From positions 32,001-96,000 of IMG/VR virus record IMGVR_UViG_3300021254_000021: a DNA stretch of 64,000 nucleotides. The stretch is one strand, 5' to 3'. The stretch comes from a virus (lineage: Duplodnaviria > Caudoviricetes). Each line of letters opens with the position of its first letter. The first letter of the stretch is position 1. A program made the translations under genes and the position numbers. Shown in pieces: positions 12,975-37,553 of this stretch. The notes below the pieces were generated by a model. The model saw only the letters and a program-made list of their open reading frames with translations. It was not told the DNA's origin and did no database searches.

Positions 12975-12988
12975 TTAGGAGACTTTAA

Positions 12989-13408: not shown

Positions 13409-13635
13409 TGCCAGAATTAACTTTATTCTTTGTCCTTAATTCATCCTCTCTTATATGTCCACCAACCAATATAGAATATCTGGATAATATAGGCCGATGT
13501 GTCTATATCTGTATAGAAGGGAGAGATTACCCCTGTATTACAGGCCCTTATGAGAATATGCAGACAGGTAAAGCAGACTTAAATTTACTTAACAAAGTCT
13601 GTGAAGATTTCGGAGTGTGTTATAAACCAGAATAA
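13408..13635 (+). CDS. hypothetical protein (75 aa)
   Basis: ATG overlaps the upstream stop (TAATG) with GAGGT RBS, suggesting translational coupling. Confidence 0.55.
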   Translation: MPELTLFFVLNSSSLICPPTNIEYLDNIGRCVYICIEGRDYPCITGPYENMQTGKADLNLLNKVCEDFGVCYKPE

Positions 13636-13685
13636 ATATCTACTACTCTAGTAGAATATTCTACTTAATTTAAGGAGAATTAAAC

Positions 13686-14075
13686 ATGTCATACCCATCT
13701 AGCTTAGACCTCGCTTTTGGTTCAGAAAAAGCAACAGCAGACCCTATAGGTCGTCTTTCTTTTGGTAAAGGTGGTAATTCTGATTTACCTAAAACTTCAG
13801 AAGAATTACATCAGTTAGCACAAGAGGGATTAGCATTCTTTGTTATGCTTGGTGCGGATAATACATTGGATTTAAGTGATACAGAACGCATACCTAGTAC
13901 TGTAGTAGAGACATTACCAGAGAATTTAAAAGGTGTTGTTATTGAAGACCCAGAGGATATGTCAATCACATCTCATACATACATAGTAACTACAGATCCT
14001 TTAGTTATCACTGTTAATTCAGTACCAGAAGGTGTTAAAGGTGCTTATATTATCCTTAAACAGGCTGTTGATTAA
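13686..14075 (+). CDS. hypothetical virion protein, paralog of 24111..24500
   Basis: AAGGAG RBS, TATCTA upstream; LDLAFGSEK.TADP.GRLSFGK shared with the minus-strand copy. Confidence 0.7.
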   Translation: MSYPSSLDLAFGSEKATADPIGRLSFGKGGNSDLPKTSEELHQLAQEGLAFFVMLGADNTLDLSDTERIPSTVVETLPENLKGVVIEDPEDMSITSHTYIVTTDPLVITVNSVPEGVKGAYIILKQAVD

Positions 14076-14111
14076 CCTAATCTATATAGCGTAACATCGT
14101 AAAACTTATCT

Positions 14112-14147
14112 ACCCCTTATAGGATTACCTGTAAGGGGTTTCTTTTT
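14112..14147 (+). terminator. rho-independent terminator
   Basis: ACCCCTTATAGG-ATTA-CCTGTAAGGGGT plus T-rich tail. Confidence 0.75.
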
Positions 14148-20912: not shown

Positions 20913-20948
20913 AAGCCCCAAAGGAAGCTCCTTTGGGGCTTTTCTTTT
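20913..20948 (+). terminator. rho-independent terminator after capsid gene
   Basis: AAGCCCCAAAGGA-AGC-TCCTTTGGGGCTT plus T tract. Confidence 0.85.
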
Positions 20949-20977: not shown

Positions 20978-21006
20978 TTGCATATTAGTTCTCTTTTTGT
21001 TATTAG
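20978..21006 (+). promoter_or_regulatory. candidate sigma70-type promoter
   Basis: TTGCAT-N17-TATTAG with extended TG, between the capsid terminator and the nuclease gene. Confidence 0.4.
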
Positions 21007-21009
21007 TCA

Positions 21010-21093
21010 TAGTTGGGTGTTATATCCCTTTATTATAGAGCTAGTTGGGTGTTATATCCCTTTGTTCTTTATAGTTGGGTGTTAATTCCCTTA
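21010..21093 (+). repeat. three 22-bp direct repeats in the 5' leader of the nuclease gene
   Basis: TAGTTGGGTGTTATATCCCTTT at 21010 and 21042, TAGTTGGGTGTTAATTCCCTTA at 21072. Confidence 0.9.
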
Positions 21094-21114
21094 ATGATAA
21101 AAAGGAGATATATT

Positions 21115-23610
21115 ATGGCTAGGAAAAGGAAGTTTATAGTAAATATTGGAGACCAATTTGGGAGACTAACTGTATTAAGAGAAGAAGTTAATCCTAAAGA
21201 CATAAGTCACCCAAATTATTTATGTCAATGCTCTTGTGGTAATACTACTATAGTAAGAGCAAAACTATTATGTAAAGGTATTACACAATCTTGTGGGTGT
21301 CTTTGGAAAGACACTATGAAGGAGATAAAGGAAAAACAGAAACAAAAGTCTGCTATCCCTATTGGGACTGTTTCAGGTAATTTAACTGTTATAGAAGATT
21401 TAGGGATTTTGCCATGTGGTGTAAAAAAAGAACATTGTTATAAGTGTAAATGTGTTTGTGGTAAAGAAGTAGTAATTAGACAGCAATGTTTAAAGAGAGG
21501 TCAGGCTTCTTGTGGGTGTACTAAATTTGAAAATCCAAGAAAAGTTATATCTGAAAAAGCAAAGAAAAAGAGAGAGTATCCTACATGGCTGTCTAATTTT
21601 TTAGTGTTTGAAGAAGAAATTAATGGTATAAAAAATAAGGATTATTCTTATGAGACTAGACTTCATTTTCGATGTTCTAATTGTGGGCAAATTGTAGAGA
21701 AGCCAATCTCATATATTATGCGATTAAATAAAGAAAGAGAACAGCCAGTCGTATTATGCTTGAATTGTTCTAATCATCGTTCTTCCTTTGAAGAAGAAGT
21801 TTATCAATATATAAAATCCATAGTTAATGAAAAAACCATACAGAGAAATATATGGGGTATTCTAAGAGATGGTCAAGTACAGTATGAACTGGACATGTAC
21901 CTTCCTGATATAGGTGTAGCTATAGAGTGTAATGGGGATTACTTTCATTCTGCTAGTTATAATAAAGGGGGTTTGTATCACCAAAAGAAATACCAATTAG
22001 CAGAAGATAAAGGGATTCATTTAATTCAAATTTTTGAATCTTACTGGAAAAGTAATAAAGAGAAAATAAAAAGCTATTTACATGATTGTTTGGGAAAAAC
22101 TCAAAAAGTGTATGCACGTAGCTGTTTTATAAGAACTATTACTAAGAATGTAGCTAATAACTTTTATAATGAGAACCATATTCAAGGAGCTAGTTCACAG
22201 TGTGATATAAATCTTGGTCTTTATGATAAAGACTCTTTGATTTCCTGTATGAGTTTTACCAAAGTTGGTTTACACAACCCTACTGCAAAAAATGAGACTT
22301 ATTTTGAACTTGTTCGCTTTTCTGTAAAAAATGGTTTTTCTATTATAGGTGGTGCATCTAAGTTACTTACTTTTTTTGAGAAAGAATATACACCTAGTAA
22401 ATTGCTCTCTTATTCAGACAATGACTTCTTTACAGGGAAGGTGTATAGGATTTTAGGCTTTACATTAGATGCTTATGTAAAGCCTCGTTATCATTGGTTT
22501 ATGCGAGATCAGACAGTTCGTACCAGAGAGAGTTGTCAGTTAAAATATCTATCTAAACAATATCCAGATATTTACAATAAAGCCTTACAAGAGAAAGCTC
22601 TTAATAAAGAGGATTATATTATGGATCAACTAAGAGCTGTTAAGGTATACCACTCTGGTAATAAGAGATGGATAAAGGAATACAAAGGAAATAGTTTAAA
22701 GGAAAATGCTCCGTTAAATGAAAATTCCTCATTAGTCACACTCCCCATGAAAGAGGAAGTTAAGAGTTTTATAAATTCCTTAATTACGGATAGTGTAGTA
22801 GAGTATAGAGATTCTCTATTTGATTTATACTTAGAAAAATTTAATCTTGCTTTTATGTTTTCTTCCTCTATATATAATACAAACCTAAAGAGACCTAAAA
22901 ATTTTTATAGAGATAAATTCTATCTCGCTAGTGAGAAAGGGATTCGTTTAATTTCCATATTTGAGATGGACTGGAAGGCTTCTAAAGATAAGATAAAGAA
23001 TCTTATTAAGTACAACATTTTACCTAAAGAGAAAATCCCTGCTAGGAAGTGTGTGGTAAAGAGTGTATCTATACAGGAAGCATGGGAGTTTTATGATACC
23101 TATCATATTCAGAATAAGTCTTGTTTAGCAAAGATAAATTATGGTCTTTATTATAAAGATTCTTTGGTGGCAGTGATGGGTTTTGGCTCATCCTCTTTCC
23201 ATAACAGGCAGTATAATGAAGGGGATTATGAGCTACATCGTTTTGTAACAAAAACTGGTTTAACTGTTGTGGGTGGGGCGTCTAAATTACTTAGTCTGTT
23301 TGAAAGAGAATACCACCCTGCATTCTTGCTGTCTTATTCGTGGAATGATTGGTATGACGGTACAATGTATTCCAAGTTAGGTTTTACTCTGGATAAGAAT
23401 GTTCCACCAGACTATTTCTGGATTCTAAATGATGAGTGTATTAACAAAAGAAAATGCAGATTGAAAAGTCTTTCCAAGCAATACCCAGAACTGTATGAGG
23501 AAGCCATAGAAAAGAATGTGTCTAATAAAGAGGACTTCATCATGGAAAGTTTAGGTGCAATAAAAGTATATCGTTCAGGATCTAAAAGATGGGTTAAGAA
23601 ATATGTGTGA
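21115..23610 (+). CDS. Zn-finger / Vsr-like nuclease / Mom-like GNAT protein (Hef-like homing endonuclease type) with duplicated nuclease-GNAT module
   Basis: Start reassigned to ATG 21115 (AAGGAG). Two GxxxGxLTV..CxCxCG..SCGC repeats, ELDMYLPDIGVAIECNGDYFH, and two ARxC..H..ELxRF..GGASKLL..SYS..GxxYxxLGF..NKEDxIM domains. Confidence 0.75.
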   Translation: MARKRKFIVNIGDQFGRLTVLREEVNPKDISHPNYLCQCSCGNTTIVRAKLLCKGITQSCGCLWKDTMKEIKEKQKQKSAIPIGTVSGNLTVIEDLGILPCGVKKEHCYKCKCVCGKEVVIRQQCLKRGQASCGCTKFENPRKVISEKAKKKREYPTWLSNFLVFEEEINGIKNKDYSYETRLHFRCSNCGQIVEKPISYIMRLNKEREQPVVLCLNCSNHRSSFEEEVYQYIKSIVNEKTIQRNIWGILRDGQVQYELDMYLPDIGVAIECNGDYFHSASYNKGGLYHQKKYQLAEDKGIHLIQIFESYWKSNKEKIKSYLHDCLGKTQKVYARSCFIRTITKNVANNFYNENHIQGASSQCDINLGLYDKDSLISCMSFTKVGLHNPTAKNETYFELVRFSVKNGFSIIGGASKLLTFFEKEYTPSKLLSYSDNDFFTGKVYRILGFTLDAYVKPRYHWFMRDQTVRTRESCQLKYLSKQYPDIYNKALQEKALNKEDYIMDQLRAVKVYHSGNKRWIKEYKGNSLKENAPLNENSSLVTLPMKEEVKSFINSLITDSVVEYRDSLFDLYLEKFNLAFMFSSSIYNTNLKRPKNFYRDKFYLASEKGIRLISIFEMDWKASKDKIKNLIKYNILPKEKIPARKCVVKSVSIQEAWEFYDTYHIQNKSCLAKINYGLYYKDSLVAVMGFGSSSFHNRQYNEGDYELHRFVTKTGLTVVGGASKLLSLFEREYHPAFLLSYSWNDWYDGTMYSKLGFTLDKNVPPDYFWILNDECINKRKCRLKSLSKQYPELYEEAIEKNVSNKEDFIMESLGAIKVYRSGSKRWVKKYV

Positions 23611-23824
23611 GAGTAGGGCTATTGTGTCGAAGGTATCTCATAATGGAGAATTTAGAACGTACTTTGTCTCAGTAGATGTAGCTTTTTCTATAGCTCGTTG
23701 TTCTAAGAATTACGTTGTTGTGTTTATAGGAAGTGAGAGATATAGATTTTTTAATGGAGAGCCTATATTAACGATTGTTAGAGAAAATTTTAGAGACGAA
23801 AACATGTCTGTTTCTCTAAAGTAA
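23603..23824 (+). CDS. hypothetical protein
   Basis: 73-aa ORF overlapping the upstream stop; no motifs. Confidence 0.3.
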   Translation: MCESRAIVSKVSHNGEFRTYFVSVDVAFSIARCSKNYVVVFIGSERYRFFNGEPILTIVRENFRDENMSVSLK

Positions 23825-23951
23825 TTGTTAAATTCTTGTTTAATACATCTTCTACCTAAAGAGGGAGATGATTTGTTTGAGTATTTAACAACATGAACAG
23901 ACCTTTTTTCTGAAAAAACTTTTACATATAATAGAAAAGGACGTATAGGCT

Positions 23952-24040
23952 ATGGTTAAGCTAGTTAAAAAAGAGTTAGTTAGTGAGGCTCTAAACGTTG
24001 GGTGAAGAAGTACAGCACTAAAAATAAAAGCCCCAATTAA
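23952..24040 (+). pseudogene. chimeric remnant: MVKLVKKE leader joined to a nuclease C-terminus
   Basis: 23952-24005 encodes MVKLVKKELVSEALNVG*; a different frame at 23987-24040 encodes GSKRWVKKYSTKNKSPN*, matching GSKRWVKKYV* at the end of ORF 21115. Confidence 0.6.
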
Positions 24041-24055
24041 GGGGCTTTTATTTTT
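24020..24055. terminator. bidirectional terminator
   Basis: AAAAATAAAAGCCCC-AATTAA-GGGGCTTTTATTTTT between convergent units. Confidence 0.85.
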
Positions 24056-24110
24056 ATCCTTTATGTAAACATTCCAATGTTTCTTTATTATCTGGGTTTA
24101 TTTAAGTAGT

Positions 24111-24500
24111 TTACTCTACTGCCTGTTTAAGAATAAGAAATACATATTTTGGCATTATCTCTAATACAGAAGTAATATAGATCTCTAATGAAGGATCTGT
24201 AGAAACATTATAAGAGAGAGGCTCTATAAGATTTTCTGGTAGCTTCTGATAAATTATACCAGACAAATTCTCTGGTAAAGAATCTACCTGTTCTTGAGTT
24301 ATTCGCTCTCTATCTGACAGGTCTACGATATTTTTATTTAGATTCACTACTACGGCTAAACCTTTTTCTCTCATCTCCTCTACTTCTTCTATAGTAGTAG
24401 GAAGTCTTGAGGAACTTTTACCAAAAGAGAGTCTACCTTGAGGATCGGCGGTAGGTTTTTCACTACCAAATGCTAAATCTAAAACGTATGGAAATGACAT
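24111..24500 (-). CDS. hypothetical virion protein, inverted paralog of 13686..14075
   Basis: 129 aa, same N- and C-terminal motifs (ILKQAV[DE]); AAGGAG RBS and TATCTA on the minus strand. Confidence 0.75.
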   Translation of the reverse strand: MSFPYVLDLAFGSEKPTADPQGRLSFGKSSSRLPTTIEEVEEMREKGLAVVVNLNKNIVDLSDRERITQEQVDSLPENLSGIIYQKLPENLIEPLSYNVSTDPSLEIYITSVLEIMPKYVFLILKQAVE

Positions 24501-24609
24501 AATTTAATCTCCTTAAAATAAGGGTAAGTGTTAGGCTAATAGCCTAATTAGGTAGATAGCGCGTGTAGCCTATCAAATTGTTTAGTTTATCCTTTAAGGA
24601 GGGGTAATT

Positions 24610-27600
24610 ATGAGACCTAATGATGGTAGAGAAGCCGCGTATGTTCGTTCCCGCGTTATAGATAAAAGCCTAGTTCCTGCTTCCACGGAATATCTCCCTT
24701 TATTTACCTGTTTAGCACCAAAAGGCACATCTACAGAACCCGTACTTATTCGTCAGGTGGATGATCTTTTAAATGAGTTTGGTGATCCTTCTATAAACCC
24801 TATTTTATACAGGGATTTAATTACCATTAGAGATTTTGTAAAGGGTGGGCGATCCTGTTGGGTGAATCGTGTCCCTGTAAATGCACAGAAGTTCCACTAC
24901 TATTTTTATCTTAACAATACTCTACCTTTGGTCTATATGCTTTATTTTACTTATCCTAAGTGGAATACACTTACAACAGAGGAAAAGCGTATAGCTAATG
25001 CAGGTTATCTCTATGGTGGTTCAAGCGTTATCCGTTTTCAGGATCATTTAGGTAATTACCTCGATGTAGACATCTTTACTGAAATATATGATATTGTTTC
25101 AAAGAAGGATGAGATATTTGAGAAAACGGGGTGGGTGGTAGATGTACCAGAAAATCCTCTTATCCGAATTGCAGAAAAGCATAACTCTTTACAGCAGTTC
25201 ACCACTTCTGTAAACAAGGGTAGGAAATACATTACTATGAGGTGGCAGGGTACATACTCTACACCAGAAAAACATACTTTAACCTCTACTGTTTATGTAC
25301 AACCTGTTGGTTCTGATGGGAAAATTATCAGAGATTCCGAAGGTCATTTAATTAGACCTGATAATCCAAATAACATCTCCCTTTTTAAGCAGACGGTTGT
25401 ACCTGTAAAGGTATTGGAAGATGTTGTAGATGCCTATATTGGTACACCAGAACATACCTCTTATACAATACCAAGTGTGGGATACTCAAATATTTATAAA
25501 CAAACAAATCATCTTTATTCTAGGAAAACGTCTATAACAGTAGAAAAACCAAATCCAGAACCTCACATTTACTATTTAGAACCTGCTCAAGAAGGTTCTA
25601 ATACCGTTATCATAGGTAAAACTCAAGAGGATGGGGATGGATGGATTTATCTTAATACAGTTAATGGTAGTACATCTTCCAGTACACGTGTAGATAAAGT
25701 TACTCTAAAAAATTCTCTTGTTGCTGATGAAAGGTATAAAGATTGTTTAGAGTTTACAAATGAAGTGAATAAGAGAATAAAAGTTAAAGATGATTATAGT
25801 CAAGATACTATAACAGTAAGTCCATTAGATATTCTTATTCATAATAAAGCTATTTATAAAGTATATTATACTCCTAATTATGTTGTAGACCCTAAAGACC
25901 CTTCTTCTAATTACAACAAAGTGGATGACGCTACTTATGTTTGGAAATTTCCGAATTTATCCACAGAAGGATTAACTCTTACTTTTTCTCCTAGTACATA
26001 CCTAGGGTATTCATATCTTATGTACTCTATTAGTGTAGAATGTACAGAGTATTATACTGGTCCCACTACTATAGAAATAGAACCTTTTGATATATTTGAA
26101 GGAGAGAAGATTCCTTATGATACAAATACACATACATACTTTCCAATAAACACGGAATCAAACCCAGACCTCCTTAGTTTAACCTTTACAGCATCTATTG
26201 GATACTACGTTTTACGAAATAATCCAATACCTTTCCCAGTTTTACAGGATAACCATATTAAGATTGGTATGGCTAATTCTAGTGGTACAGGGGATATTTA
26301 TCAGGAGATAAAATTACCCGCAGGTACATATAACCAGTCAGGTGCAAGGTATATCATAGATAAGTTAATCCATGTCTTTTATAAAGCTACTAGATACACT
26401 GAATCTAAACTAAGAAAAAGGAAGGTGTATTCTGAAATACCTACGACAGATGAGGAATGGGAAGATTATCTTGTTCCAGAATCCGAGTTAATAGATGGTA
26501 CGGAATACTATACCAATGAGAAAGACTCTACCTCTATAGAAAGGATAGAGCCTAATTGGCAAACATTTATTTATTCTTCTTCATCTCCTAATATACCTAA
26601 AGCTCCACTATACAGACTCTTTTATACCTCTACATCATCCTCTAATTATTATTATAATGCGGCTTTTGAAATATGTGATAGCAATTATAGTCTTATTTAT
26701 TCTATTGGAGCAAACTTAGTCTATGTGGACGACCGTATTATAAACAACTTGATGTCAAGAACATTATATAGGGGAGAAGAAGCAGAAGATTTCTCTGTTT
26801 ATTTCCCTTATAGCTATTGGTCTGAGATAGAGGATTATCTTAAAGATAATTTCGACATAGAGATGCACTACCCAGATGGGTTCTCTTCAAGTGAGACACA
26901 TCTTACCTCGTTTGACACAACTTTAATACCAGAATTAAGTGCAGAGGATCTTTTACTCTTTAGTATGGATTCGATGCTCTATCAGGACTCAAATATTTTG
27001 ACCATAACCTCTGTGACTAAATTAAAACCCGCTTCGGCAGGACTGCGTATTAAGTATGTTTTACAGGGTTATGACTTTTCCTACACCAACTTCTTAATTG
27101 AGGAAACAATTACTCTGCCAGATCACTTTACCAATCAGCAATTTGCTGATGCAATGAATGAGAATCCATACGTTAATGTTACTGTGGATGATCCAGAAGC
27201 AGACAATATTTACAGGAATGTTATAGCAGGGTATTTTAGTAACTTAGCCTATACAGTTCACTATGACTTGGATGTAGAAATAACATTAGAGGATTACCAG
27301 AAAGCAATTAAGGTTTATTCAGATCCAAAGTATTATGGAAACTTTATTGCTGATTTAACATATCCTTTAGTAAGGTGGTATGAAAATCCAGACCCAGATA
27401 GTGAGCCTTATTATGAAATCTACATCATGCCAGAAAATGAACGTAGGGCGATTCATTGGACAATGAAGGAGATTGCGGCAACACGTAAGGATTTAATCTG
27501 CATATTCTCAACACCTAATTTACCTTTAGATCAAGCCTGTAATTGGGTAGCCGCTAAAGGTGATTATGCAGATTATTGGGAATACGGTACATCTCAAACC

Positions 27601-28299
27601 TTAGAGTATTCTGAACAGGCTTTCTACTGCGAGATGTACTATGGTTGGTTTAGTTATAAAACAGCCTTAGTTTCCGGCCAACCTTATAAGATTAAGGAAG
27701 TGAATGCAACTCTCTTTGTTATTGCCAACATTATTGATGCTTGGAATAACAAAGGTATCTCTTTCCCTGTTGCGGGAGATCAGGGTGGTGTTTTAAATAG
27801 TAACATAGATTACATAAGTATTCTGGATAACCCAGATACGAAACAGAAGAAGGATAAATTAGTCTCTTACAGAATTAACCCTATTTGGGACACAGGTACA
27901 CGTGGTATTCAGATTTATGGTAATGAGACTTTGAATCCTCTCTATACAGATTTATCTTCGGCGCATATTGCAAGAATGCTTGTGCAGATACGTAACCAGA
28001 TAGACACGTACACAGAGTCGATTAAATTCTCTTTAAATAACAAGTACACATGGGGTAGTTGGATTAATAATGTATCTACTAAGATTCTTGATCCTTTAAA
28101 GGCACAAGGTGGCTTAGTTTGGTACAGTGTTAAGATGGGTACAGACACAACTACGCCCGACCAGATAGCACAAAGAAGAATAAACGGTATTGTTTCTCTG
28201 CAATTCCGACCAGATTTAGAGATAATAGACTTAGAATATACCGTATATTCCTCTGCTTTAGATATGGTTGAGGTTTCTAGTAATATAGTCCTCTTGTGA
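24610..28299 (+). CDS. tail sheath protein paralog 1 (large insertion domains)
   Basis: FGDP motif near N-terminus; FPVAGDQGG, RINPIWDTGTRGIQIYGNETL, HIARML and IKFSLN sheath C-terminal motifs. Confidence 0.88.
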   Translation: MRPNDGREAAYVRSRVIDKSLVPASTEYLPLFTCLAPKGTSTEPVLIRQVDDLLNEFGDPSINPILYRDLITIRDFVKGGRSCWVNRVPVNAQKFHYYFYLNNTLPLVYMLYFTYPKWNTLTTEEKRIANAGYLYGGSSVIRFQDHLGNYLDVDIFTEIYDIVSKKDEIFEKTGWVVDVPENPLIRIAEKHNSLQQFTTSVNKGRKYITMRWQGTYSTPEKHTLTSTVYVQPVGSDGKIIRDSEGHLIRPDNPNNISLFKQTVVPVKVLEDVVDAYIGTPEHTSYTIPSVGYSNIYKQTNHLYSRKTSITVEKPNPEPHIYYLEPAQEGSNTVIIGKTQEDGDGWIYLNTVNGSTSSSTRVDKVTLKNSLVADERYKDCLEFTNEVNKRIKVKDDYSQDTITVSPLDILIHNKAIYKVYYTPNYVVDPKDPSSNYNKVDDATYVWKFPNLSTEGLTLTFSPSTYLGYSYLMYSISVECTEYYTGPTTIEIEPFDIFEGEKIPYDTNTHTYFPINTESNPDLLSLTFTASIGYYVLRNNPIPFPVLQDNHIKIGMANSSGTGDIYQEIKLPAGTYNQSGARYIIDKLIHVFYKATRYTESKLRKRKVYSEIPTTDEEWEDYLVPESELIDGTEYYTNEKDSTSIERIEPNWQTFIYSSSSPNIPKAPLYRLFYTSTSSSNYYYNAAFEICDSNYSLIYSIGANLVYVDDRIINNLMSRTLYRGEEAEDFSVYFPYSYWSEIEDYLKDNFDIEMHYPDGFSSSETHLTSFDTTLIPELSAEDLLLFSMDSMLYQDSNILTITSVTKLKPASAGLRIKYVLQGYDFSYTNFLIEETITLPDHFTNQQFADAMNENPYVNVTVDDPEADNIYRNVIAGYFSNLAYTVHYDLDVEITLEDYQKAIKVYSDPKYYGNFIADLTYPLVRWYENPDPDSEPYYEIYIMPENERRAIHWTMKEIAATRKDLICIFSTPNLPLDQACNWVAAKGDYADYWEYGTSQTLEYSEQAFYCEMYYGWFSYKTALVSGQPYKIKEVNATLFVIANIIDAWNNKGISFPVAGDQGGVLNSNIDYISILDNPDTKQKKDKLVSYRINPIWDTGTRGIQIYGNETLNPLYTDLSSAHIARMLVQIRNQIDTYTESIKFSLNNKYTWGSWINNVSTKILDPLKAQGGLVWYSVKMGTDTTTPDQIAQRRINGIVSLQFRPDLEIIDLEYTVYSSALDMVEVSSNIVLL

Positions 28300-28414
28300 A
28301 CAATGTCAGTTAATGCATGTGGCAGAGGTAGCTCAACCTTAACTTACTCCAACTTATCTATCTTTAGTAAGAGAATGTTTCCTTACTAAAGGTAGAAGCA
28401 TAAGGAGATGGATT

Positions 28415-28579
28415 ATGACAGAGAAAGAGTATTTGGATTATAAAAGAGCAATGAATATCTTTGTTTCCTCTCAATACATTTCAGATATGCGCCCAATTCC
28501 CGGCACACCTGTATTACCCTCTATTCCAGTTCCTGATCCAGAGGAAGATGGGGAAGGTGATAATACAGAAAATCCTTAA
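28415..28579 (+). CDS. small Pro/acidic protein (54 aa), not in the ORF track
   Basis: AAGGAG RBS; MTEKEYLDYKRAMNIFVSSQYISDMRPIPGTPVLPSIPVPDPEEDGEGDNTENP*; TATCTA at 28355 and terminator downstream. Confidence 0.65.
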   Translation: MTEKEYLDYKRAMNIFVSSQYISDMRPIPGTPVLPSIPVPDPEEDGEGDNTENP

Positions 28580-28603
28580 TTAGCTTAGAAGTTTAACTAA
28601 AAC

Positions 28604-28648
28604 AAAACCCTCTAAGAGATTATCTAATTCTCTTAGAGGGTTTTTCTT
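28604..28648 (+). terminator. terminator hairpin with TATCTA in its loop
   Basis: AAAACCCTCTAAGAGA-TTATCTAAT-TCTCTTAGAGGGTTTTT. Confidence 0.75.
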
Positions 28649-28683
28649 TATCCACCCACTACTTCAATAGAAGGAGAAATAGT

Positions 28684-31284
28684 ATGAATCCAAATCAAGG
28701 TCGTGAAGCGGCGTATGTAAAATCCAGAGTTAAAGACCTTAGTCTTATTACCAATACACCAGACTATGTAGGGTGCTTTGCTTGTATTACACCTAAAGCT
28801 CATTCTTCTTTAGATGAGCCAGAAAATTATACCATTGTTGACGGTGTTAAAGTCTACCTTCCTCAGTTAGTTAGAGATGTCGATACTCTGACAGAATTAT
28901 TTGGTGATCCTAGAATTGATCCTGCTACCTATAAAGACCTTTATGCTATCAGAACAATCGTGCAGAATGGTTTTGCCTGTCATATTGCAAAAGTTAAATC
29001 AGGTGAACCCTATACTGCTATTGTAAACTCCTCTGGTCTTTTTGAATCAGCAGGTTGTATTCCAAATACTCAGTTAGATGATGAATCAGAGTTAATTCAG
29101 CTTAAAGCAGACTTACAAGACATTAACTTATTTAATGTAGAGTCCTCTATTGTAGGTACAAACAAGCTGTCTGTCGCCCTTATTCCTTTAAAACCATTCT
29201 CAATCAACCAAGTTGTTTTAGAGATTCACTTTACCTCTAAAGCTACATCATCTTCTGATGAAGTAGAGGTTTCCTCTGCTAGAATAATGCTTACACCCGA
29301 TACCAAGAATGCGGATTTGATTAAAACAATCAATGGTTATCTTGGTGGAGACATTAGCTTCCAGTTACCAGACATTCTTAATGATGCCACGTTTGCTACG
29401 GTTACAGATGCCAGTGAGGTGATTGAACCTGATTCCTCTACTGGTGAAAAGTATTACTGCATTGCGAACGTCCTTCTCTATATCTGCGGACTCTATGTTT
29501 TAAGAAAAGAGGGTGATCACTTTGACAGCACCGATCTTCTTATGGACAATATGGAACTGTGTACAAAAGAAGTGTCTGGTGTTACCAAGAGAGGTTTGGA
29601 AGCTCTTAAAGTGGAATGGACAAATGGCTATGTTGGACATAACAGAACAACATTTATATGCAAAGTGAATAAAGGTGAGGATGCTACCCTTTCCGTTTCA
29701 CAGGCAGATTATGTCCGCTCTTTAAATCTTTATAGTGATCCTAAGTACAATGGTTGCTTTATCTCTGATTTAAGCTCTGATGTCACAGTCACAATAGAGA
29801 AAGATAAACCCACTTATAAAGCAACCAACTATATAGCTAATAGCTATAATGAAGAAGCTCTGCCCGAAGATTACCCAAAGACAACAGGTTATCTCTTTGT
29901 TAAGAGAGGTGACGAGGATGATCCTACCACTACCTATGACAGCATGAAGTATATTGCTGATAATACCGCTTACTTAGCAACACGTGGTCTGGATAGACAG
30001 AAATTCACACAGACCTCAGAAACAGAGGGTGATGTCACCGTTTATACCTATACACCAGATCCTTCAGGAACATTCGTAAGAAAGTATGAGTCTAATCCCA
30101 CCTTAACAGAGAGATTTGCTCCCGATACGGAAAACTCCAACTTTGTTACTCTGGAGGCAGGGGTAAACGACAAGTATAATAAACAGCTCTATAACCCTAA
30201 TGGTTATACCAGAGTTAATTTAACTTCTGAACCATCCCCGGCTACAGACCAAATCTTTTTTGTTAAAAATGAAGATGGTACAGCTTATGTGGAGAGAATT
30301 GTAGCTAATCCAAGTGCAGAACCACCAGTAGAAGGTAATGATAAAGAAGAAGTGACAGAGATGGTGGAAATGCCGTCCGATGATAGACGTGGTTTACACT
30401 ATATCATTAAACATGTAGCCGCTCTTAGAAAAGACTTAACCTGTGTATTTACCACCCCATACAAACCTTGTGACATAGAACAGTCTATAGTACAAAAGAC
30501 ACTTATCTATGAGGATTTGTTTGATTTAAATAGAGCCTGTAATTGGGTTGCCGTTAAAGGTGATTTTACAGACTTATTTGAATATGGTAATTCTCAGGCT
30601 GTCGATTACTCCGAACAGGCTTTTTACTGTGAAATGTACTGGTCATGGCTTAAATGGCGTGTAGCTAAATTAGTTAATGGTTTGGCCACTGGTTCTTCCG
30701 TTGTAATCATGCCACCCACACCTTTCGTTATTTTGAATGCTTTAGCCTCTTATCGTACAAAAGGTTCGTTCTACCCTGTTGCAGGTGATCAAGGTGGTGT
30801 CCTTCCTGATTCCTGTACCATTCTACAGAATCCTTCTACCAAAGGACAGAGAGACAAACTAATCTCTTATAGAATTAACCCCATTTATGATACTGGTTTA
30901 CGTGGTATTCAGATTTACGGTAATGATACCCTTAATCCACAATACACCGATCTTTCAGCCGCTCATATAGCCCGTACCCTCGTTCAGATTCGATCCAGAG
31001 TTGATGCTTACTCAGAAACCATTAAGTTCTCACTCAACGATAAGTACACTTGGGGTACATGGATCAATTACGTCTCTACCAAGATTCTTGATCCTATCCG
31101 ATCCTTGGGTGGATTACAGTGGTATCAGGTCGATATGGGTTATAACACCACTACACGAGATGAGATAGCACAACGTAAGATTCGTGGCATGATTAGCCTA
31201 CAGTTTACGCAGGCTCTTGAAATAATCGACTTAGAATTTGTCGTTTATTCTTCTGCTCTGGATATGGAAGCTACTACAACGTAA
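28684..31284 (+). CDS. tail sheath protein paralog 2
   Basis: Same N-terminus (GREAAYVKSRV) and C-terminal sheath motifs as paralog 1. Confidence 0.9.
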   Translation: MNPNQGREAAYVKSRVKDLSLITNTPDYVGCFACITPKAHSSLDEPENYTIVDGVKVYLPQLVRDVDTLTELFGDPRIDPATYKDLYAIRTIVQNGFACHIAKVKSGEPYTAIVNSSGLFESAGCIPNTQLDDESELIQLKADLQDINLFNVESSIVGTNKLSVALIPLKPFSINQVVLEIHFTSKATSSSDEVEVSSARIMLTPDTKNADLIKTINGYLGGDISFQLPDILNDATFATVTDASEVIEPDSSTGEKYYCIANVLLYICGLYVLRKEGDHFDSTDLLMDNMELCTKEVSGVTKRGLEALKVEWTNGYVGHNRTTFICKVNKGEDATLSVSQADYVRSLNLYSDPKYNGCFISDLSSDVTVTIEKDKPTYKATNYIANSYNEEALPEDYPKTTGYLFVKRGDEDDPTTTYDSMKYIADNTAYLATRGLDRQKFTQTSETEGDVTVYTYTPDPSGTFVRKYESNPTLTERFAPDTENSNFVTLEAGVNDKYNKQLYNPNGYTRVNLTSEPSPATDQIFFVKNEDGTAYVERIVANPSAEPPVEGNDKEEVTEMVEMPSDDRRGLHYIIKHVAALRKDLTCVFTTPYKPCDIEQSIVQKTLIYEDLFDLNRACNWVAVKGDFTDLFEYGNSQAVDYSEQAFYCEMYWSWLKWRVAKLVNGLATGSSVVIMPPTPFVILNALASYRTKGSFYPVAGDQGGVLPDSCTILQNPSTKGQRDKLISYRINPIYDTGLRGIQIYGNDTLNPQYTDLSAAHIARTLVQIRSRVDAYSETIKFSLNDKYTWGTWINYVSTKILDPIRSLGGLQWYQVDMGYNTTTRDEIAQRKIRGMISLQFTQALEIIDLEFVVYSSALDMEATTT

Positions 31285-31306
31285 GATGAAAATTTAAACT
31301 CAGTTA

Positions 31307-31346
31307 AAAACCCGATTAGGATTGTACTTAATCGGGTTTTCTTTTT
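31307..31346 (+). terminator. rho-independent terminator
   Basis: AAAACCCGATTAGG-ATTGTA-CTTAATCGGGTTTT. Confidence 0.8.
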
Positions 31347-31348
31347 GT

Positions 31349-31377
31349 TTGACTTTCATCTCAGAATGTAGTATAGT
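31349..31377 (+). promoter_or_regulatory. sigma70-type promoter
   Basis: TTGACT-N17-TATAGT; followed by a 9-bp-stem hairpin ATTAAGTGA-AATCCC-TCACTTAAT (31384-31407). Confidence 0.7.
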
Positions 31378-31425
31378 AGTTACATTAAGTGAAATCCCTC
31401 ACTTAATAAGATACGGAGCTACATT

Positions 31426-33273
31426 ATGGGTAAAGATTATCGACATTTTACAAAATATCCAACGTGGTTTATAGAGGAATTAGTTAATAAAGAAGATCGT
31501 GAGGATGCTAAGAAAGGTATTTTACCTCGTTCTAAAAAGGTTACTCTTTTCTGTAAAGATCATGGCTCTTATCTCCAAACACCCTCGAACCACATAGACT
31601 TTAAAACTATGTCTTTAAAGGGAGGTTGTCCGAAATGTGGGAGACGCCTACAAATAGAAAAGAGTAAGATAACTAAAAGAAAAGTTAGAAAGTCTTATCC
31701 AGAGTGGTTTATAAATGAGTTAGCACATGATGAGGATAGAATTAAAGTGAAAAATAAGGAGCTTTCTACGGGAGACAGAGTAGATTTTCTATGTCCTGTA
31801 CATGGTATTTACAGTATGGCAGTCTTTAATCATATTCGTTTAAAGACAGGATTAAGACTACGTGGATGTCCAGAGTGTGCAAAAGTAGATAGGAGAGAAC
31901 ACTGTATTAAAACAAAGATGGAAAATAGACCAGACTATCCTGTTTGGTTTATAGAAGAATTATTTAAAGAGGAAGATAAAGAGCGTGCTAGGAATAAGTG
32001 TTTAAGGTATAATGAAAAGGTTTCTTTTTATTGTAAGGATCATGGTGTCTATACACAGATAGTAGCAGATCATATAGAGTATAAGACAGGGGAAAAGAAA
32101 CAGGGATGCCCAAAGTGCGGAATAATAAAAAGAAATTTAAATAAGAAAGAGAGAAATAAACAGAAAAGACCAAACTATCCAGACTGGTTTATTGAGGATA
32201 TAGCTAGTGAGGAAGATAAAGATAGGGCGAGAAACAAAGAACTAACGTGGTCTGATAAGGTAAATTTTATTTGTCCTATACATGGTGTGTATAAACAAAG
32301 AATAGATGCACACATGAACACTTCTACTTTAACACCAAAACAAGGTTGCCCTTCTTGTGGAATCCTTCTTTCTAAAAGTGAGATAGAAATATCTGATTTT
32401 ATTAAATCACTAGGGGTAGAGATAGAAAAAAGAAATAGATCTTTGATTAAAGAGAAAGCGTCTACGCGATTTTTAGAATTGGATATTTTTATTCCTAATA
32501 AAAATATAGCTATTGAGTATAATGGAAGTTACTGGCATGGAGAGTTGCATAAAAAAGATAAGAAAAGTAATTTGAATAAATTCTTACTCTGTGCAGAACA
32601 AGGTATTCGCTTAATCTCTATTTATGATCGTGATTGGAAAGAAAACAAAGATAAGATTTCTAACTTTCTAAAAGATTTGTTAGTTCCTAAAATTAGAATT
32701 TTCGGTAGATGTACAGAAGTTAGAACCCTTTCCTTACAAGAAGCAAAGAAGTTTTATGATGAAAATCATTTAAAAGGGAGTGGTAATCACAATAAAATTT
32801 CTTATGGTCTGTTTTATAATGGTAGTTTGGTATCAGCAATGTCCTTTTCTAAACCGAACTTTGGGAATCAAAGAAAGGTAGAGTGGGATTTGACACGTTA
32901 TTGTGTTAAGTTTGGTTATTCTGTTATAGGAGGTGCTGAAAAACTCTTTAAAACATTTATAAAAGAATTTAATCCTTCTAATGTAATAACTTATTCTGAC
33001 AATGATTACTTTACAGGAGAAGTCTATTCCAGACTAGGTTTTCTTTTGGATAAGATAACTAGTATTCCTTATTACTGGGCTAAGAGTGATCACATTTTTC
33101 TAAATAGAGAGGTGTGTCAGGTACATAAACTAAAAGAAAAGTATCCTGATATTTTCCAGAAATCTATAGATGAGAATGCATCTAACAAAGAGGATTATAT
33201 CATGCACACTTTAGGTTATTATAAAGTGTATCGTTGTGGTAATAAAAGGTGGATTTGGAAATCCACTATCTAA
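31426..33273 (+). CDS. 4x Zn-finger repeat / Vsr-like nuclease / Mom-like GNAT protein
   Basis: Four ~77-aa YPxWFIxEL..CxxHG..H..GCPxC repeats; ELDIFIPNKNIAIEYNGSYWH; ENHL, DLTRY, GGAEKL, TYSDND, GEVYSRLGF. Confidence 0.75.
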   Translation: MGKDYRHFTKYPTWFIEELVNKEDREDAKKGILPRSKKVTLFCKDHGSYLQTPSNHIDFKTMSLKGGCPKCGRRLQIEKSKITKRKVRKSYPEWFINELAHDEDRIKVKNKELSTGDRVDFLCPVHGIYSMAVFNHIRLKTGLRLRGCPECAKVDRREHCIKTKMENRPDYPVWFIEELFKEEDKERARNKCLRYNEKVSFYCKDHGVYTQIVADHIEYKTGEKKQGCPKCGIIKRNLNKKERNKQKRPNYPDWFIEDIASEEDKDRARNKELTWSDKVNFICPIHGVYKQRIDAHMNTSTLTPKQGCPSCGILLSKSEIEISDFIKSLGVEIEKRNRSLIKEKASTRFLELDIFIPNKNIAIEYNGSYWHGELHKKDKKSNLNKFLLCAEQGIRLISIYDRDWKENKDKISNFLKDLLVPKIRIFGRCTEVRTLSLQEAKKFYDENHLKGSGNHNKISYGLFYNGSLVSAMSFSKPNFGNQRKVEWDLTRYCVKFGYSVIGGAEKLFKTFIKEFNPSNVITYSDNDYFTGEVYSRLGFLLDKITSIPYYWAKSDHIFLNREVCQVHKLKEKYPDIFQKSIDENASNKEDYIMHTLGYYKVYRCGNKRWIWKSTI

Positions 33274-33313
33274 CACATAGTGACTTTGTTCCTTAAAAAT
33301 AAAGGAGAGTATC

Positions 33314-33757
33314 ATGCGTAAATTAAAAAGAAATGAAACAAGAACAGTGACAGAGGGTATCTCCCCTTCTGCTATTGGTCGTAGTAAAGAGATCGTGGAT
33401 TGGGCTATTGACTACATTAAAGACACCCTTCCTGATTATGAGGGAGAAACTGTTTATGGTAGTGATTTAGGCGCTACCATTACAGAAGGCCCTAATGCAA
33501 ATGGGGTTTATGAAGAAGATGCTTGGGGTTTCATATCCAAGCATATCAATGATGCCCGTGATGAGTACGAGTATGAGAAGGATAACTTTGGTGAGGTTCT
33601 GCATAACCCGTTTGAAGACCCAGATGCTTTTGTTGTCTGTATGTTAATCAACACAGTGGAAGGTGTTTTGTCTCAAGTTCCATTGGTGGAGGAGAACTGG
33701 AATGACGAGTTCGAGCTGACTAAAGAGAATATAGATGCTATCTTAAAAGCTCTTTAA
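33314..33757 (+). CDS. small acidic protein, probable capsid cargo
   Basis: AAGGAG RBS; MRKLKRNE leader then a strongly Asp/Glu-rich body. Confidence 0.65.
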   Translation: MRKLKRNETRTVTEGISPSAIGRSKEIVDWAIDYIKDTLPDYEGETVYGSDLGATITEGPNANGVYEEDAWGFISKHINDARDEYEYEKDNFGEVLHNPFEDPDAFVVCMLINTVEGVLSQVPLVEENWNDEFELTKENIDAILKAL

Positions 33758-33785
33758 TTACAACTATATCTATCTTAGTAAAGAG

Positions 33786-33815
33786 AAAGCCCAACTTAAA
33801 TAGTTGGGCTTTTTT
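33786..33815 (+). terminator. rho-independent terminator
   Basis: AAAGCCCAACT-TAAAT-AGTTGGGCTTTTTT. Confidence 0.8.
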
Positions 33816-33831
33816 ATATAGGAGAAATACT

Positions 33832-34488
33832 ATGGTTAAGTTAAAGAGAGTCTGTGAGAGATATGATCATATCCGTTCTTTAGAGAACCTATTAAAGTTT
33901 TACTCTAGGAATCCAGATAATTGGGATAAAGAGTGGTCTGTCAACCCTTATTATCTTGTAGATTTAAAGAATTATGGTGCAGGTCATTGTGTTTGTGGAC
34001 ATCCTATTCGTTACCAATACCAATTTTTAAATACGGTAACAGGTAGAACATTCCCTGTTGGATCAGAATGTGTCCATCTTTTACATCTCGCCAAATTTGA
34101 CGAGACAGTGGATAAACTGGAAAAGATTGCTCAAATGGCTAATGCTGAAATAGACACTTCTTTAAAGGCTGAGGACTTTATTAAAGCGTATAAGAAAATA
34201 TACGATATGGCTGGTGTCTCTGCTTTAACAAGCTATGGACAGTATAAACCAGATCCCACAGATCTATTTATCTATCGTAACTCTATTGGTAAACGTAAAT
34301 ATAAAGAGTATGCAGAGAAGATGAAAGCGTTTATGATAGAGTTGCATGATGAAGCTAAGAAGTTTGTCAACAGTATGGAAAGAAAATCAAAACCTGTGAC
34401 ACCAGATCAGGTACAGCAGATTGTCGATGATAGCGCCGCAGAGATGTTACGTTTTGCACAGGCCAAACAAAATAAACTTCCATTCTAA
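33832..34488 (+). CDS. Zn-binding hypothetical protein, probable capsid cargo
   Basis: MVKLKRVCE leader; HCVCGHPI...VGSECV metal-binding pattern. Confidence 0.6.
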   Translation: MVKLKRVCERYDHIRSLENLLKFYSRNPDNWDKEWSVNPYYLVDLKNYGAGHCVCGHPIRYQYQFLNTVTGRTFPVGSECVHLLHLAKFDETVDKLEKIAQMANAEIDTSLKAEDFIKAYKKIYDMAGVSALTSYGQYKPDPTDLFIYRNSIGKRKYKEYAEKMKAFMIELHDEAKKFVNSMERKSKPVTPDQVQQIVDDSAAEMLRFAQAKQNKLPF

Positions 34489-34538
34489 ATAAACCTCTAT
34501 CTATCTTCATATACCCCTTTTGTGTATGGAGATAGATT

Positions 34539-34964
34539 ATGTATAAAGACAAACCATTAATTCTAAACATCTTACTAGGTATATGGCAACTACCACAGAT
34601 ATTGGTTGGTCTTGTTATGTTAGCTATATTCCGTAACAAGACATCATACACAAATCCGCATAACCATATTACGGTATGGAATATTAACTGTCATCGTGCC
34701 TTTGGTACAGCCTGTTTCTCAACAGGCCCATTCATAATAACTTGTGATGATTATGTGGATGATGAAATACTTAGACATGAGACTGGTCACAGTCTTCAAA
34801 GCGTAATACTGGGACTATTCTATCACATTGTTGTTTCCATTCCGAGTGTTTGTTTATTTTGGTATAAGAGGAGAAAGAAAAAAGATCAGAAATGGTATTA
34901 TAGTCATTATCCAGAAAATTGGGCGAATAAAGCGGGTGGTGTAGAGACCTCTATGTACGAGTGA
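34539..34964 (+). CDS. small membrane protein with HExxH zinc-peptidase-like motif
   Basis: IWQLPQILVG hydrophobic N-terminus, RHETGHSLQS, YPENWAN. Confidence 0.6.
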   Translation: MYKDKPLILNILLGIWQLPQILVGLVMLAIFRNKTSYTNPHNHITVWNINCHRAFGTACFSTGPFIITCDDYVDDEILRHETGHSLQSVILGLFYHIVVSIPSVCLFWYKRRKKKDQKWYYSHYPENWANKAGGVETSMYE

Positions 34965-35055
34965 TAATCTAAATACACAGGGTTAAGTCGGCCAACCGAA
35001 AAAAAGCAGTACATAAGGTTATTATAAACAGAGATTATTCCTTTTTATCGTATAT

Positions 35056-35091
35056 AAGGGAAAGAGATTCCTCTCTTTCCCTTTTTCTTTT
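35056..35091 (+). terminator. terminator-like hairpin directly upstream of the third nuclease gene
   Basis: AAGGGAAAGAGA-loop-TCTCTTTCCCTT plus T tract. Confidence 0.6.
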
Positions 35092-35099
35092 ATCGTATT

Positions 35100-36923
35100 A
35101 TGGCTAAGAAAAAAAGAATATACCCACAATGGTTTATAGAAGAATTAGCAGACCCTACGGTTAAGCAACAGGCCGTAGATGGGTCACTCTCCACTGTATC
35201 TAAAGTAGAATTTAAATGTGCTTGTGGGAATACTTATATACAAAAAATAACAAACCATATTAACCTCTCTACTGGGGAGAGAAAGTTTGGACATTGTAAA
35301 GAGTGTACAAAGAGAATATCAGCTCAAAAATACAGAGACTCTTTAGGTACATCGAAACCTTATCCTAATTGGTTTATAGATGAGTTAGTTAGAGATGAGG
35401 ATAAGATTAAAGCTAGAGATGGAAAACTGAAGTCTGATGATAACGTCCCTTTTATTTGCCCTATATGTAAAGAGATATATAATCAAAGAGTGGCTAGTCA
35501 TATAACACTTTCTACAGGTATTAAAAAGAAGGGGTGTCCTAAGTGTGGTATAAGAAAACAGATAGAGTCCAGTAGAAAAACTAAAGAGATTATAAAGCCT
35601 TATCCACAATGGTTCATAGATGATCTTTACTCTAATGAGGATAAAGCATTAGCTACAACCACCAATTTTTATGGCAAAGAGGAAAAACAATTCTATTGTA
35701 AGAAACATGACTTGGTGTACATACAAAAAGTGAGGAGTCATATAGATTTAAAAACTCACTTACCAAAAGCGGGATGTCCACAGTGTAAAGTAGAGAAGTT
35801 TAGAAAATCTTTAAATACAGACACGCCTTTGCCTGATTGGTTCATAAAAGACTTAGTTAATAAAGAAGATAAGCAAAGAGCTAAAGAAGGTAAAATTAAG
35901 TCTAATGAGAAATTAGATTTCCAGTGTAAACAAAATCACATATATAAGCAGGAAGTACATGCTCATATAAATTTAGGTACACAAGAGCAACTATGTGGAT
36001 GTCCCGTTTGTGCTAAACAGAGGTCTAACACAGAGATTAGCATAGAGAACTTTATTAAAGAACTAGGATTTAATACCGAACATAAGCGGTTTAATTCATC
36101 TATATTACCCATCTTTGAGTTAGACATATTTATTCCAGATAAGTACATAGGCATAGAGTACAATGGATCTTTCTGGCATAAAACACTTCCACAGGATTTT
36201 TGTTTTAAGCCTAGGCTGTATCATAACCAGAAATACTATGCTTGTAAGGAATTAGGAATACAACTAATCTCTATATTCGATGTCGATTGGGAATATAGAA
36301 AGGATAAAATCAAGCAGTATCTTAAAGACCTCTTAACACCATCCTCTAATAGAATTTATGCAAGGAAATGTGAAGTAAAACAGATAAGTAAAGAGGAAGC
36401 TAATGATATGTATGAAGAGGATCACTTGTTAGGTAAAACTTCTGTACAGTCTGTCTCTTATGGTTTATTTTTTAACAATGATTTACTTTCTTGCATGAGC
36501 TTTCAAAAAGGAAGGTATAAAGAGGGTAAAGAATCCGTTTGGTGTCTCACTCGTTTTGTTACTAAGTCTTGTTACTCTATTGTAGGTGGGGCTTCTAAAC
36601 TTTTAACAGAGTTTGAAAAGGAATTTAAACCATCTATTTTAATCTCTTATTCTGATAATGATTATTTCACTGGTAGAGTATATTCTAAGTTAGGTTTTGA
36701 TTGTTTTGGTGATACAGGATCTCCACGCTACTACTGGTATTTAAATGGATCAGAGCTTAAAAGAGAGCAATGTCAGTTAAAATTCCTTTCTAAACAATAT
36801 CCAGAACTGTATCAAGAGTCTTTAAATAGGACTGGAAATAAAGAGGATTATATTATGCTTAGTCTTGGTGCTAATAAGGTGTATAGGTCTGGACATACCA
36901 AATGGATAAAAAGATATAGCTAA
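35100..36923 (+). CDS. 4x Zn-finger repeat / Vsr-like nuclease / Mom-like GNAT protein
   Basis: Four PxWFI..C..HI..GCPxC-type repeats; ELDIFIPDKYIGIEYNGSFWH; EDHL, LTRF, GGASKLL, SYSDND, GRVYSKLGF. Confidence 0.75.
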   Translation: MAKKKRIYPQWFIEELADPTVKQQAVDGSLSTVSKVEFKCACGNTYIQKITNHINLSTGERKFGHCKECTKRISAQKYRDSLGTSKPYPNWFIDELVRDEDKIKARDGKLKSDDNVPFICPICKEIYNQRVASHITLSTGIKKKGCPKCGIRKQIESSRKTKEIIKPYPQWFIDDLYSNEDKALATTTNFYGKEEKQFYCKKHDLVYIQKVRSHIDLKTHLPKAGCPQCKVEKFRKSLNTDTPLPDWFIKDLVNKEDKQRAKEGKIKSNEKLDFQCKQNHIYKQEVHAHINLGTQEQLCGCPVCAKQRSNTEISIENFIKELGFNTEHKRFNSSILPIFELDIFIPDKYIGIEYNGSFWHKTLPQDFCFKPRLYHNQKYYACKELGIQLISIFDVDWEYRKDKIKQYLKDLLTPSSNRIYARKCEVKQISKEEANDMYEEDHLLGKTSVQSVSYGLFFNNDLLSCMSFQKGRYKEGKESVWCLTRFVTKSCYSIVGGASKLLTEFEKEFKPSILISYSDNDYFTGRVYSKLGFDCFGDTGSPRYYWYLNGSELKREQCQLKFLSKQYPELYQESLNRTGNKEDYIMLSLGANKVYRSGHTKWIKRYS

Positions 36924-36989: not shown

Positions 36990-37553
36990 ATGGCTTATGA
37001 TACATATTCAGGTGCATCACATTTTGCGAACGACTCCAATTATGAAGTCCAACGTGGTAATCATTACGAGATTGTTATAGACTTGGATGCCTTACAGCCT
37101 AAGTTTGATTCAACTTATGCAGAAGCTATTCGTCTTTGTTGTACTTCTGCTCCTGTTCCTGATATTTCTATTCAAGCACAGCCTTTACGTCATGGTAATG
37201 AAACAGTAAACGTTGCAGGTTCTCCTTCATGGGGAAACATGTCCATTAGTGTTTATGATGTTATTGGACGTGATATGGCTACTTTATTACAGGAATGGTT
37301 TTGGAGAGTCTTTAATCCTGCTACACATACAATGGGTTTAGTTACATCATATAAAACCTCTGCAACACTTTATCTGTATTCACCAGATGCTTCTACCTTT
37401 AGAAAATGGATTTGTTATGGTGTTTTCCCAACAAACATAAACTTTGGTAGTTATTCTGCTGACAGTCAGGGCGCTCCAGTTTCCATTACTATGAATCTTG
37501 CAGTGGATAGAACTGAACTAGTTTCCGCAGGTGGTACAGCTATTGGTTTTTAA
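36990..37553 (+). CDS. tail tube protein (T4 gp19-like)
   Basis: QRGNHYEI, SAPVP, GNETVNVAG, ISVYD, LQEWF..V, GVFPTNI gp19-type motifs; 187 aa. Confidence 0.88.
   Translation: MAYDTYSGASHFANDSNYEVQRGNHYEIVIDLDALQPKFDSTYAEAIRLCCTSAPVPDISIQAQPLRHGNETVNVAGSPSWGNMSISVYDVIGRDMATLLQEWFWRVFNPATHTMGLVTSYKTSATLYLYSPDASTFRKWICYGVFPTNINFGSYSADSQGAPVSITMNLAVDRTELVSAGGTAIGF

Follow-up and report, generated by a model that had tools for sequence, protein, structure and literature searches.

Three nuclease-Mom genes in a jumbo phage

The window analysed here, a stretch of 64,000 nucleotides (positions 32,001 to 96,000 of IMG/VR virus record IMGVR_UViG_3300021254_000021), comes from an uncultured jumbo phage and carries three genes, termed open reading frames (ORFs) A, B and C, in each of which a Cys-rich or zinc-finger N-terminus is joined to a Vsr-like nuclease and to a C-terminal domain resembling Mom of phage Mu. 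The 252-kb virus record that contains the window has T4-like virion genes, namely those for a prohead protease, a Gp23 capsid protein, two sheaths and a tube. ORFs A, B and C are mutually similar and thus paralogs (phmmer E 1e-74 to 1e-146). This similarity is far above chance, and coincidental resemblance and miscalled ORFs were both rejected as explanations. The initial annotation of this DNA had described the nuclease motif ELDxxxPxxxxxIExNGxxxH and the C-terminal motifs E[ND]H, LxR[FY], GGA[SE]KL, [ST]YSDND and GxVYxxLGF in ORFs starting at 21115, 31426 and 35100, and all of these are present. It had also assigned the three ORFs to one layout, which describes B and C, where four zinc-finger repeats of 76-80 amino acids each (pattern YPxW..CxxH/C..CxxC) precede the nuclease, but not A, which has another N-terminus and two tandem nuclease-Mom modules. 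The features are listed below, with residues of the Mom-like domains numbered as in Mu Mom except where B's own numbering is given.

21115-23610, + strand: ORF A, 831 amino acids from the ATG; Cys-rich N-terminus, then two tandem nuclease-Mom modules
21115-21771, + strand: A N-terminus; two phrog_374-type Cys repeats and one YPxW zinc finger, presumed to bind DNA
21772-22101, + strand: A nuclease 1; Vsr/EDxHD type, catalytic motif E, D, E, N, H intact
22102-22686, + strand: A Mom-like GNAT domain 1; His58, Arg111, Ser124, Asp149 and Tyr159 retained, Arg151 replaced by Asp
22738-23028, + strand: A nuclease 2; K, D, M, S, N at the five catalytic positions, predicted to be inactive
23029-23607, + strand: A Mom-like GNAT domain 2; Asp149 replaced by Trp, Arg151 by Asp
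31426-33273, + strand: ORF B, 615 amino acids; four zinc-finger repeats, nuclease, Mom-like GNAT domain
31456-32358, + strand: B zinc-finger array; four 80-residue repeats, DUF4379/DUF723, CapR-related
32359-32691, + strand: B Vsr/EDxHD nuclease; E319, D353, E364, N366, H371
32692-33270, + strand: B Mom-like GNAT domain; H448, R491, D525 and Y534 retained, E505 at Ser124, D527 at Arg151
35100-36923, + strand: ORF C, 607 amino acids; four zinc-finger repeats, nuclease, Mom-like GNAT domain
35121-36017, + strand: C zinc-finger array; four repeats, DUF4379
36018-36347, + strand: C Vsr/EDxHD nuclease; motif intact
36348-36920, + strand: C Mom-like GNAT domain; Arg151 replaced by Asp
Genome 29306-31501 (G000:C1): fourth family member, 0.5 kb before the window start; 731 amino acids, Asp151 type

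The double-module layout of A recurs in three orthologs (54-63% identity), as does its second module with both sites substituted, the nuclease lacking the Glu and His and the Mom domain carrying Trp at Asp149. Compared with one ortholog, GNAT domain 2 is the best-conserved region of A (65% identity; nonsynonymous differences, pN, of 0.22 against synonymous differences, pS, of 0.78). Tandem nuclease-Mom modules also occur in the distant family members P0236, P0237, P0238 and P0281, some of which have two intact-looking nucleases. Zinc fingers of the DUF4379/DUF723 types are also found on T5orf172 homing endonucleases.

The only clear solved match of the nuclease, obtained with a 67-sequence profile, is the catalytic domain of I-Bth0305I (PDB 3R3P; E 3.9e-7), and the identity of the domain comes from this profile search, fold searches with a two-domain model having been taken up by GNAT matches. 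The match bears out the earlier description of the nuclease as Vsr-like; the PD-(D/E)xK assignment with its Lys, however, gives way to a Vsr/EDxHD site with His. The E-D-E-N-H positions are intact in module 1 of A, in B and in C, and are replaced in module 2 of A. With I-Bth0305I (PMC3239194) the genes share the Vsr-derived catalytic domain (E, D, an extra acidic residue, N, H) and repeated N-terminal DNA-binding motifs. They differ from it in the final Asp of EDxHD (D222 in I-Bth0305I), which is a conserved His in the Hef-Mom family and Asn in B, in having zinc fingers instead of NUMOD repeats, in the added Mom-like domain and in lying outside introns.

Genes of this kind are usually labelled Hef-like homing endonucleases, a label that the initial annotation mentioned before proposing a further role and that we find to be justified. 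Taylor et al., 2011 defined a Vsr-derived EDxHD homing family in which Hef-type enzymes are included, and the cleavage target of U5 Hef is nrdB. In one T4-like phage a homolog occupies the nrdA-nrdB interval, which is the position of U5 Hef (E 4e-32). U5 Hef reportedly cuts DNA of its own genome in vitro. The nuclease-Mom module occurs in 420 cultured or deposited phage records, where the annotation reads Hef-like homing endonuclease or, for certain Acinetobacter phages, nuclease/acetyltransferase; the family comprises 17,120 clusters (E up to 1e-10). The genes described here match phrog_559/3339 at E 1e-69 to 1e-124, and their best matches to annotated Hef-like genes reach 36-39% identity over ~300 amino acids, the homology to Hef-type proteins being drawn through these annotated genes.

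Hef of the T-even phage U5 and the Hef-like genes of Campylobacter Fletcherviruses, of Pseudomonas phages PA5oct and Paride and of Acinetobacter T4-like phages share with these genes both the Vsr-like nuclease and the C-terminal domain after it. Similarly, the Hef-like genes of known phages are free-standing between conserved genes, also beside the capsid gene, and Fletcherviruses carry 10-12 copies per genome. In contrast, the present lineage has YSDNDY, with Asp at Arg151, where the known genes have DRRW, DRLY or NRRW, and it is further set apart by its arrays of four 80-residue DUF4379/DUF723 fingers and by a conserved double-module form whose second module is doubly substituted.

A Mom-like domain with altered active-site residues

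The C-terminal domain of ~190 amino acids is modelled by AlphaFold as a GNAT (pLDDT 94), and the top Foldseek match of the model is Mu Mom (PDB 8BV8; E 7.5e-8, TM 0.58), which agrees with the Mom-like GNAT first proposed from the motifs. Against Mu Mom, VIA-align gives a Z of 13.6 and a root-mean-square deviation of 2.5 over 136 residues; other GNATs tie by Z. A helical insertion follows the D149 strand, where Mom carries its essential helix-turn-helix (HTH)-like insertion. The Pfam Mom family (PF25680) scores over its cut-off in homolog P0100 and within half a bit of the cut-off in three more, and B matches phrog_1384 at E 4e-4. A comparison of the family profile with Mu Mom alone by hhalign was weak (probability 7%, E 0.005) and a single-sequence search of the PDB with the C-terminal domain gave no match, so the link to Mom rests on the fold search and on the Pfam matches in homologs, by which we identify the domain as a Mom-family GNAT. 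The two-domain nuclease-Mom model has a pTM of 0.90, which is consistent with the pair forming one rigid unit.

Mu Mom carries out a Gly-tRNA-dependent adenine modification (PF25680, PDB 8BV8; PMC13219725) and is modelled to flip deoxyadenosine (dA). R111, S124 and R151 are essential to it, and substitutions at D149, H58, Y59, Y159, W48 or W181 impair it strongly. The domains described here share the GNAT fold with it and conserve His58, Arg111, Asp149, Gly156 and Tyr159, but are fused rather than stand-alone and have 14-17% identity to it. Across 175 aligned domains, H58, R111 and Y159 hardly vary. Position 151, which is Arg in 68 of 86 IMG/VR domains, is occupied by Asp in each of this genome's five, while Ser124 is variable and has become Glu in B, Tyr59 is Leu, Ile or Phe, and Trp48 is not retained. 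By the standard of Mu Mom, the changes at R151, S124 and D149 leave a complete active site in none of the Mom domains of the window, and the essential-residue set of active Mom enzymes is likewise incomplete across this genome's domains, all of which keep H58, R111 and Y159.

In the tree, a branch supported at 97% sets the Asp151 sequences apart on one side by the Shimodaira-Hasegawa-like approximate likelihood ratio test (SH-aLRT; 69 rows, 60 with Asp). As Mom sits on a very long branch, the tree lacks a reliable root; parsimony, rather than any result of the tree, would make Asp151 the derived state. Of the Asp151 rows, 28 of 61 retain Ser124, and of the Arg151 rows 63 of 78 do so, a descriptive contrast among related rows. 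D149 is substituted in P0044 and P0074 (Trp), P0076 (Ala) and P0099 (Asn), single-module relatives with an intact nuclease motif, which argues that modification is not required for an intact nuclease to persist. The obligatory modification beside an intact nuclease that a type IIG-like enzyme would require is not what the sequences of these relatives display.

The Mom domain is under purifying selection, with dN/dS of 0.08-0.32 in six comparisons, and the nuclease and finger regions give similar values. In addition, the Mom domains are basic, with net charges of +5 to +11. The simplest reading is that the Mom domain would have a structural and DNA-binding role. Within the Mom domain of C, a patch at ~36500-36710 is 82% identical to L019/L020, a sister allele that is otherwise 96-97% identical, and has a synonymous divergence (dS) of 0.39 against 0.10-0.12 elsewhere; recombination exchanges segments of this domain.

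Sites in related phages and the role of the fusion

The genes that flank ORFs A, B and C are the following.

19446-20891: capsid gene, 5' neighbour of ORF A
28684-31284: sheath gene (sheath 2), 5' neighbour of ORF B
36990-37553: tube gene, 3' neighbour of ORF C

These neighbours are those originally named, but the accompanying claim that every copy sits between core virion genes is too broad, for three small genes separate ORF B from ORF C and C has a core virion gene on one side only.

In related phages (numbered with the prefix L; the source of one relative is a bovine metagenome), site A is found in several states. It is empty in L010-L012, where the capsid gene is followed by the same 70-amino-acid gene. 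It holds a single-module A-like gene in L018 and L013, a double-module ortholog in L112, another paralog in L008 and L017, and two tandem copies in L013. L021, 96% identical over the adjoining 10 kb, has a paralog 40-48% identical to A directly 5' of the 70-amino-acid gene, and 3' of the capsid gene in L024 (11582-11933) there is a remnant with broken frames, in which one zinc finger is joined to the last 40 residues of the Mom domain. At site B the empty allele is found in L010, at site C in L015, both of them more distant relatives with some rearrangement. A search of viral_contigs for close relatives found none. Taken together, the empty, swapped and remnant alleles imply that the genes are mobile, and the site patterns are those of a gain, swap and decay cycle of homing genes. 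Mobility had been proposed in the initial annotation; the copies in the genome number four.

On balance, we favour the view that these are homing nucleases in which the Mom-derived domain would act as a non-catalytic DNA-binding module, a view we hold with modest confidence, and the copies in the window probably cut DNA without modifying it. If they do home, it is reasonably likely that the Mom-derived domain binds DNA without modifying it. In our model, the N-terminal zinc-finger array would select and bind a long DNA site, as family knowledge suggests. The Vsr/EDxHD domain, whose motif is present and whose activity is known for Hef and I-Bth0305I, would then cut this site in a co-infecting relative. 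Recombination repair, the footprints of which are seen, would carry the gene with its flanking DNA over into the genome that was cut, and a terminator-like hairpin before each gene would keep expression low. The Mom-derived domain would be retained as a non-catalytic part of the nuclease-Mom unit, gripping the DNA beside the cut through Mom's DNA-binding cleft. The model builds on observed domain identities, intact nuclease motifs, footprints of mobility, residue changes and purifying selection; the cleavage, the place of the target, the loss of catalysis and the binding of DNA by the Mom domain are inferred.

Several observations weigh against this view. His58, Arg111 and Tyr159 are invariant in 61 of 61 Asp151 rows and Asp149 is kept in 56 of the 61; this retention is equally compatible with an active site that works by altered chemistry. 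The residues were mapped by sequence alignment at ~14-17% structural identity, with hhalign and MAFFT agreeing on Arg151 and MAFFT alone placing Ser124, and the mutagenesis of Mu Mom may not be transferable to the Asp151 subfamily. Furthermore, the capsid gene gave no cleavage site, co-conversion tract or fixed-codon signature in a comparison of seven alleles whose synonymous sites are near saturation.

The initial annotation had instead proposed that each chain both cuts and modifies DNA. This is not new, as Iyer et al., 2021 (PMC7824862) had already predicted jumbo-phage Mom-REase (restriction endonuclease) fusions and a modification-plus-restriction logic; their fusions have the same architecture as these genes and the same proposed logic, and the five 'momylating enzymes' of PA5oct correspond to five places found here by tblastn. 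The fusion architecture and the cut-and-modify idea are thus already published, and the lineage-specific change in the Mom active site is the sole addition made here. On the published scheme, the Mom domain would acylate adenine in or near its own site and the nuclease would cut unmodified copies, in the manner of a type IIG enzyme with a non-methyl mark. The single-chain layout of nuclease and Mom-like domain fits such an enzyme, and the scheme gains from the place of Mom at the top of the Foldseek matches, from the position of the helical insertion, from the invariant His58, Arg111 and Tyr159 and the mostly retained Asp149, from the retention of Arg151 and Ser124 in most of the wider family and from purifying selection; the reported cutting by U5 Hef of its own genome's DNA in vitro could likewise be accounted for by self-modification. 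However, the lineage described here differs from the fusions of Iyer et al. in being without a residue needed by Mu Mom and in behaving as mobile homing genes. Arg151 is Asp in every copy, Ser124 varies freely in the lineage and Tyr59 is replaced, changes that argue against modification of the Mu type and make modifier activity doubtful. The Trp at Asp149 in relatives with an intact nuclease argues that protection by Mom chemistry is not obligatory, and in the literature examined no DNA modification is reported for any fused nuclease-Mom member. We regard an active cut-and-modify enzyme as rather unlikely here.

A variant of this idea is that the Asp151 lineage is active with another donor or acceptor than that of Mu Mom, so that each protein would mark its own zinc-finger-defined site and cut unmarked alleles. 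An altered but active modifier is conceivable because H58, R111 and Y159 never change; we think it unlikely. If it were true, the lineage would represent a homing element that protects itself by a base modification not yet described, and thus a new DNA chemistry.

Less likely again is that these are domesticated nucleases, kept for damaging superinfecting phages, satellites or host DNA, with homing secondary and self spared by sequence. Purifying selection acts on all domains over long distances, the sites stay occupied across phages with capsids 79-92% identical, and homing-endonuclease domains are known to be co-opted in phage-satellite conflicts; yet purifying selection is also expected from homing alone, and the empty sites, the paralog replacement and the decayed remnant make up a selfish cycle of gain and loss. 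We consider it very improbable that a retired Mom pocket flips and reads adenine, making cutting depend on base modification as the SRA domain does in PvuRts1I-type enzymes. Such a reader would be in keeping with the base-handling domain, modelled as rigid, right after the nuclease, with the dA flipping modelled for Mom and with the nuclease's weak Pfam matches to PvuRts1I-like and MTES_1575 REases, but those matches lie under the curated cut-offs and any Vsr-like domain would be expected to give them, the long arrays of zinc fingers suggest targeting by sequence, and no modification system is tied to these genes. Mu-like genome-wide anti-restriction modification was rejected as a role of these genes.

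Among the nuclease families of phages, the nuclease-Mom fusion ranks with the larger ones. This lineage offers natural controls, in Asp at Arg151, in Glu at Ser124 of B and in Trp at Asp149 beside an intact nuclease, which, set beside an Arg151 member such as the T-even Hef, could separate a modifier from a DNA-binding module. The modular zinc-finger arrays are also of some interest as long-site nucleases.

Upstream elements and neighbouring genes

The following elements lie 5' of the three genes.

20913-20941, + strand: terminator-like hairpin separating A from the capsid gene; relatives with an empty site have an equivalent hairpin there
21000-21099, + strand: three imperfect direct repeats 5' of A, core TAGTTGGGTGTTA, spacing 32 and 30 nucleotides, between the capsid terminator and A
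31307-31340, + strand: terminator-like hairpin separating B from sheath 2; a promoter-like match comes next, at 31349-31377
35056-35083, + strand: terminator-like hairpin 5' of C, ending 16 nucleotides before the C start

The repeats at 21000-21099 are a possible operator; repeats of this sequence were not seen 5' of the A-like genes in L018 or L013. Between the hairpin at 35056-35083 and the ATG of C there is no Shine-Dalgarno sequence. Promoter-like matches are no commoner than in shuffles (57 against 64). In the fourth copy, the GGAG Shine-Dalgarno sequence is enclosed in a long, perfectly paired stem that ends 3 nucleotides short of the ATG, an arrangement that resembles the repression hairpins of T4 homing endonucleases.

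The two sheath genes of the window are long and have large insertions (24610-28299, 1229 amino acids, and 28684-31284, 866 amino acids); L010 has one sheath gene only in the corresponding stretch. L021 has an extra 367-amino-acid gene between its two sheath genes and an IS605/TnpB element truncating the 218-amino-acid gene 3' of B (5839-7158, 12807-14139). In L017 a stand-alone DUF559/Vsr-like gene (10679-11383) lies directly 3' of the tube gene and is preceded by two nuclease-Mom genes. An M-x-K-L-[KRV]-[RK]-like leader opens many unrelated ORFs, including those at 14168, 17144, 33314, 33832 and 37579 of the window and genes upstream of it. Finally, the tail tube gene has a cluster of differences from the sister strain at 37145-37185 and a dN/dS of 0.41, which is high for a tube gene; the cluster may mark either a patch of recombination or a region targeted by a nuclease.

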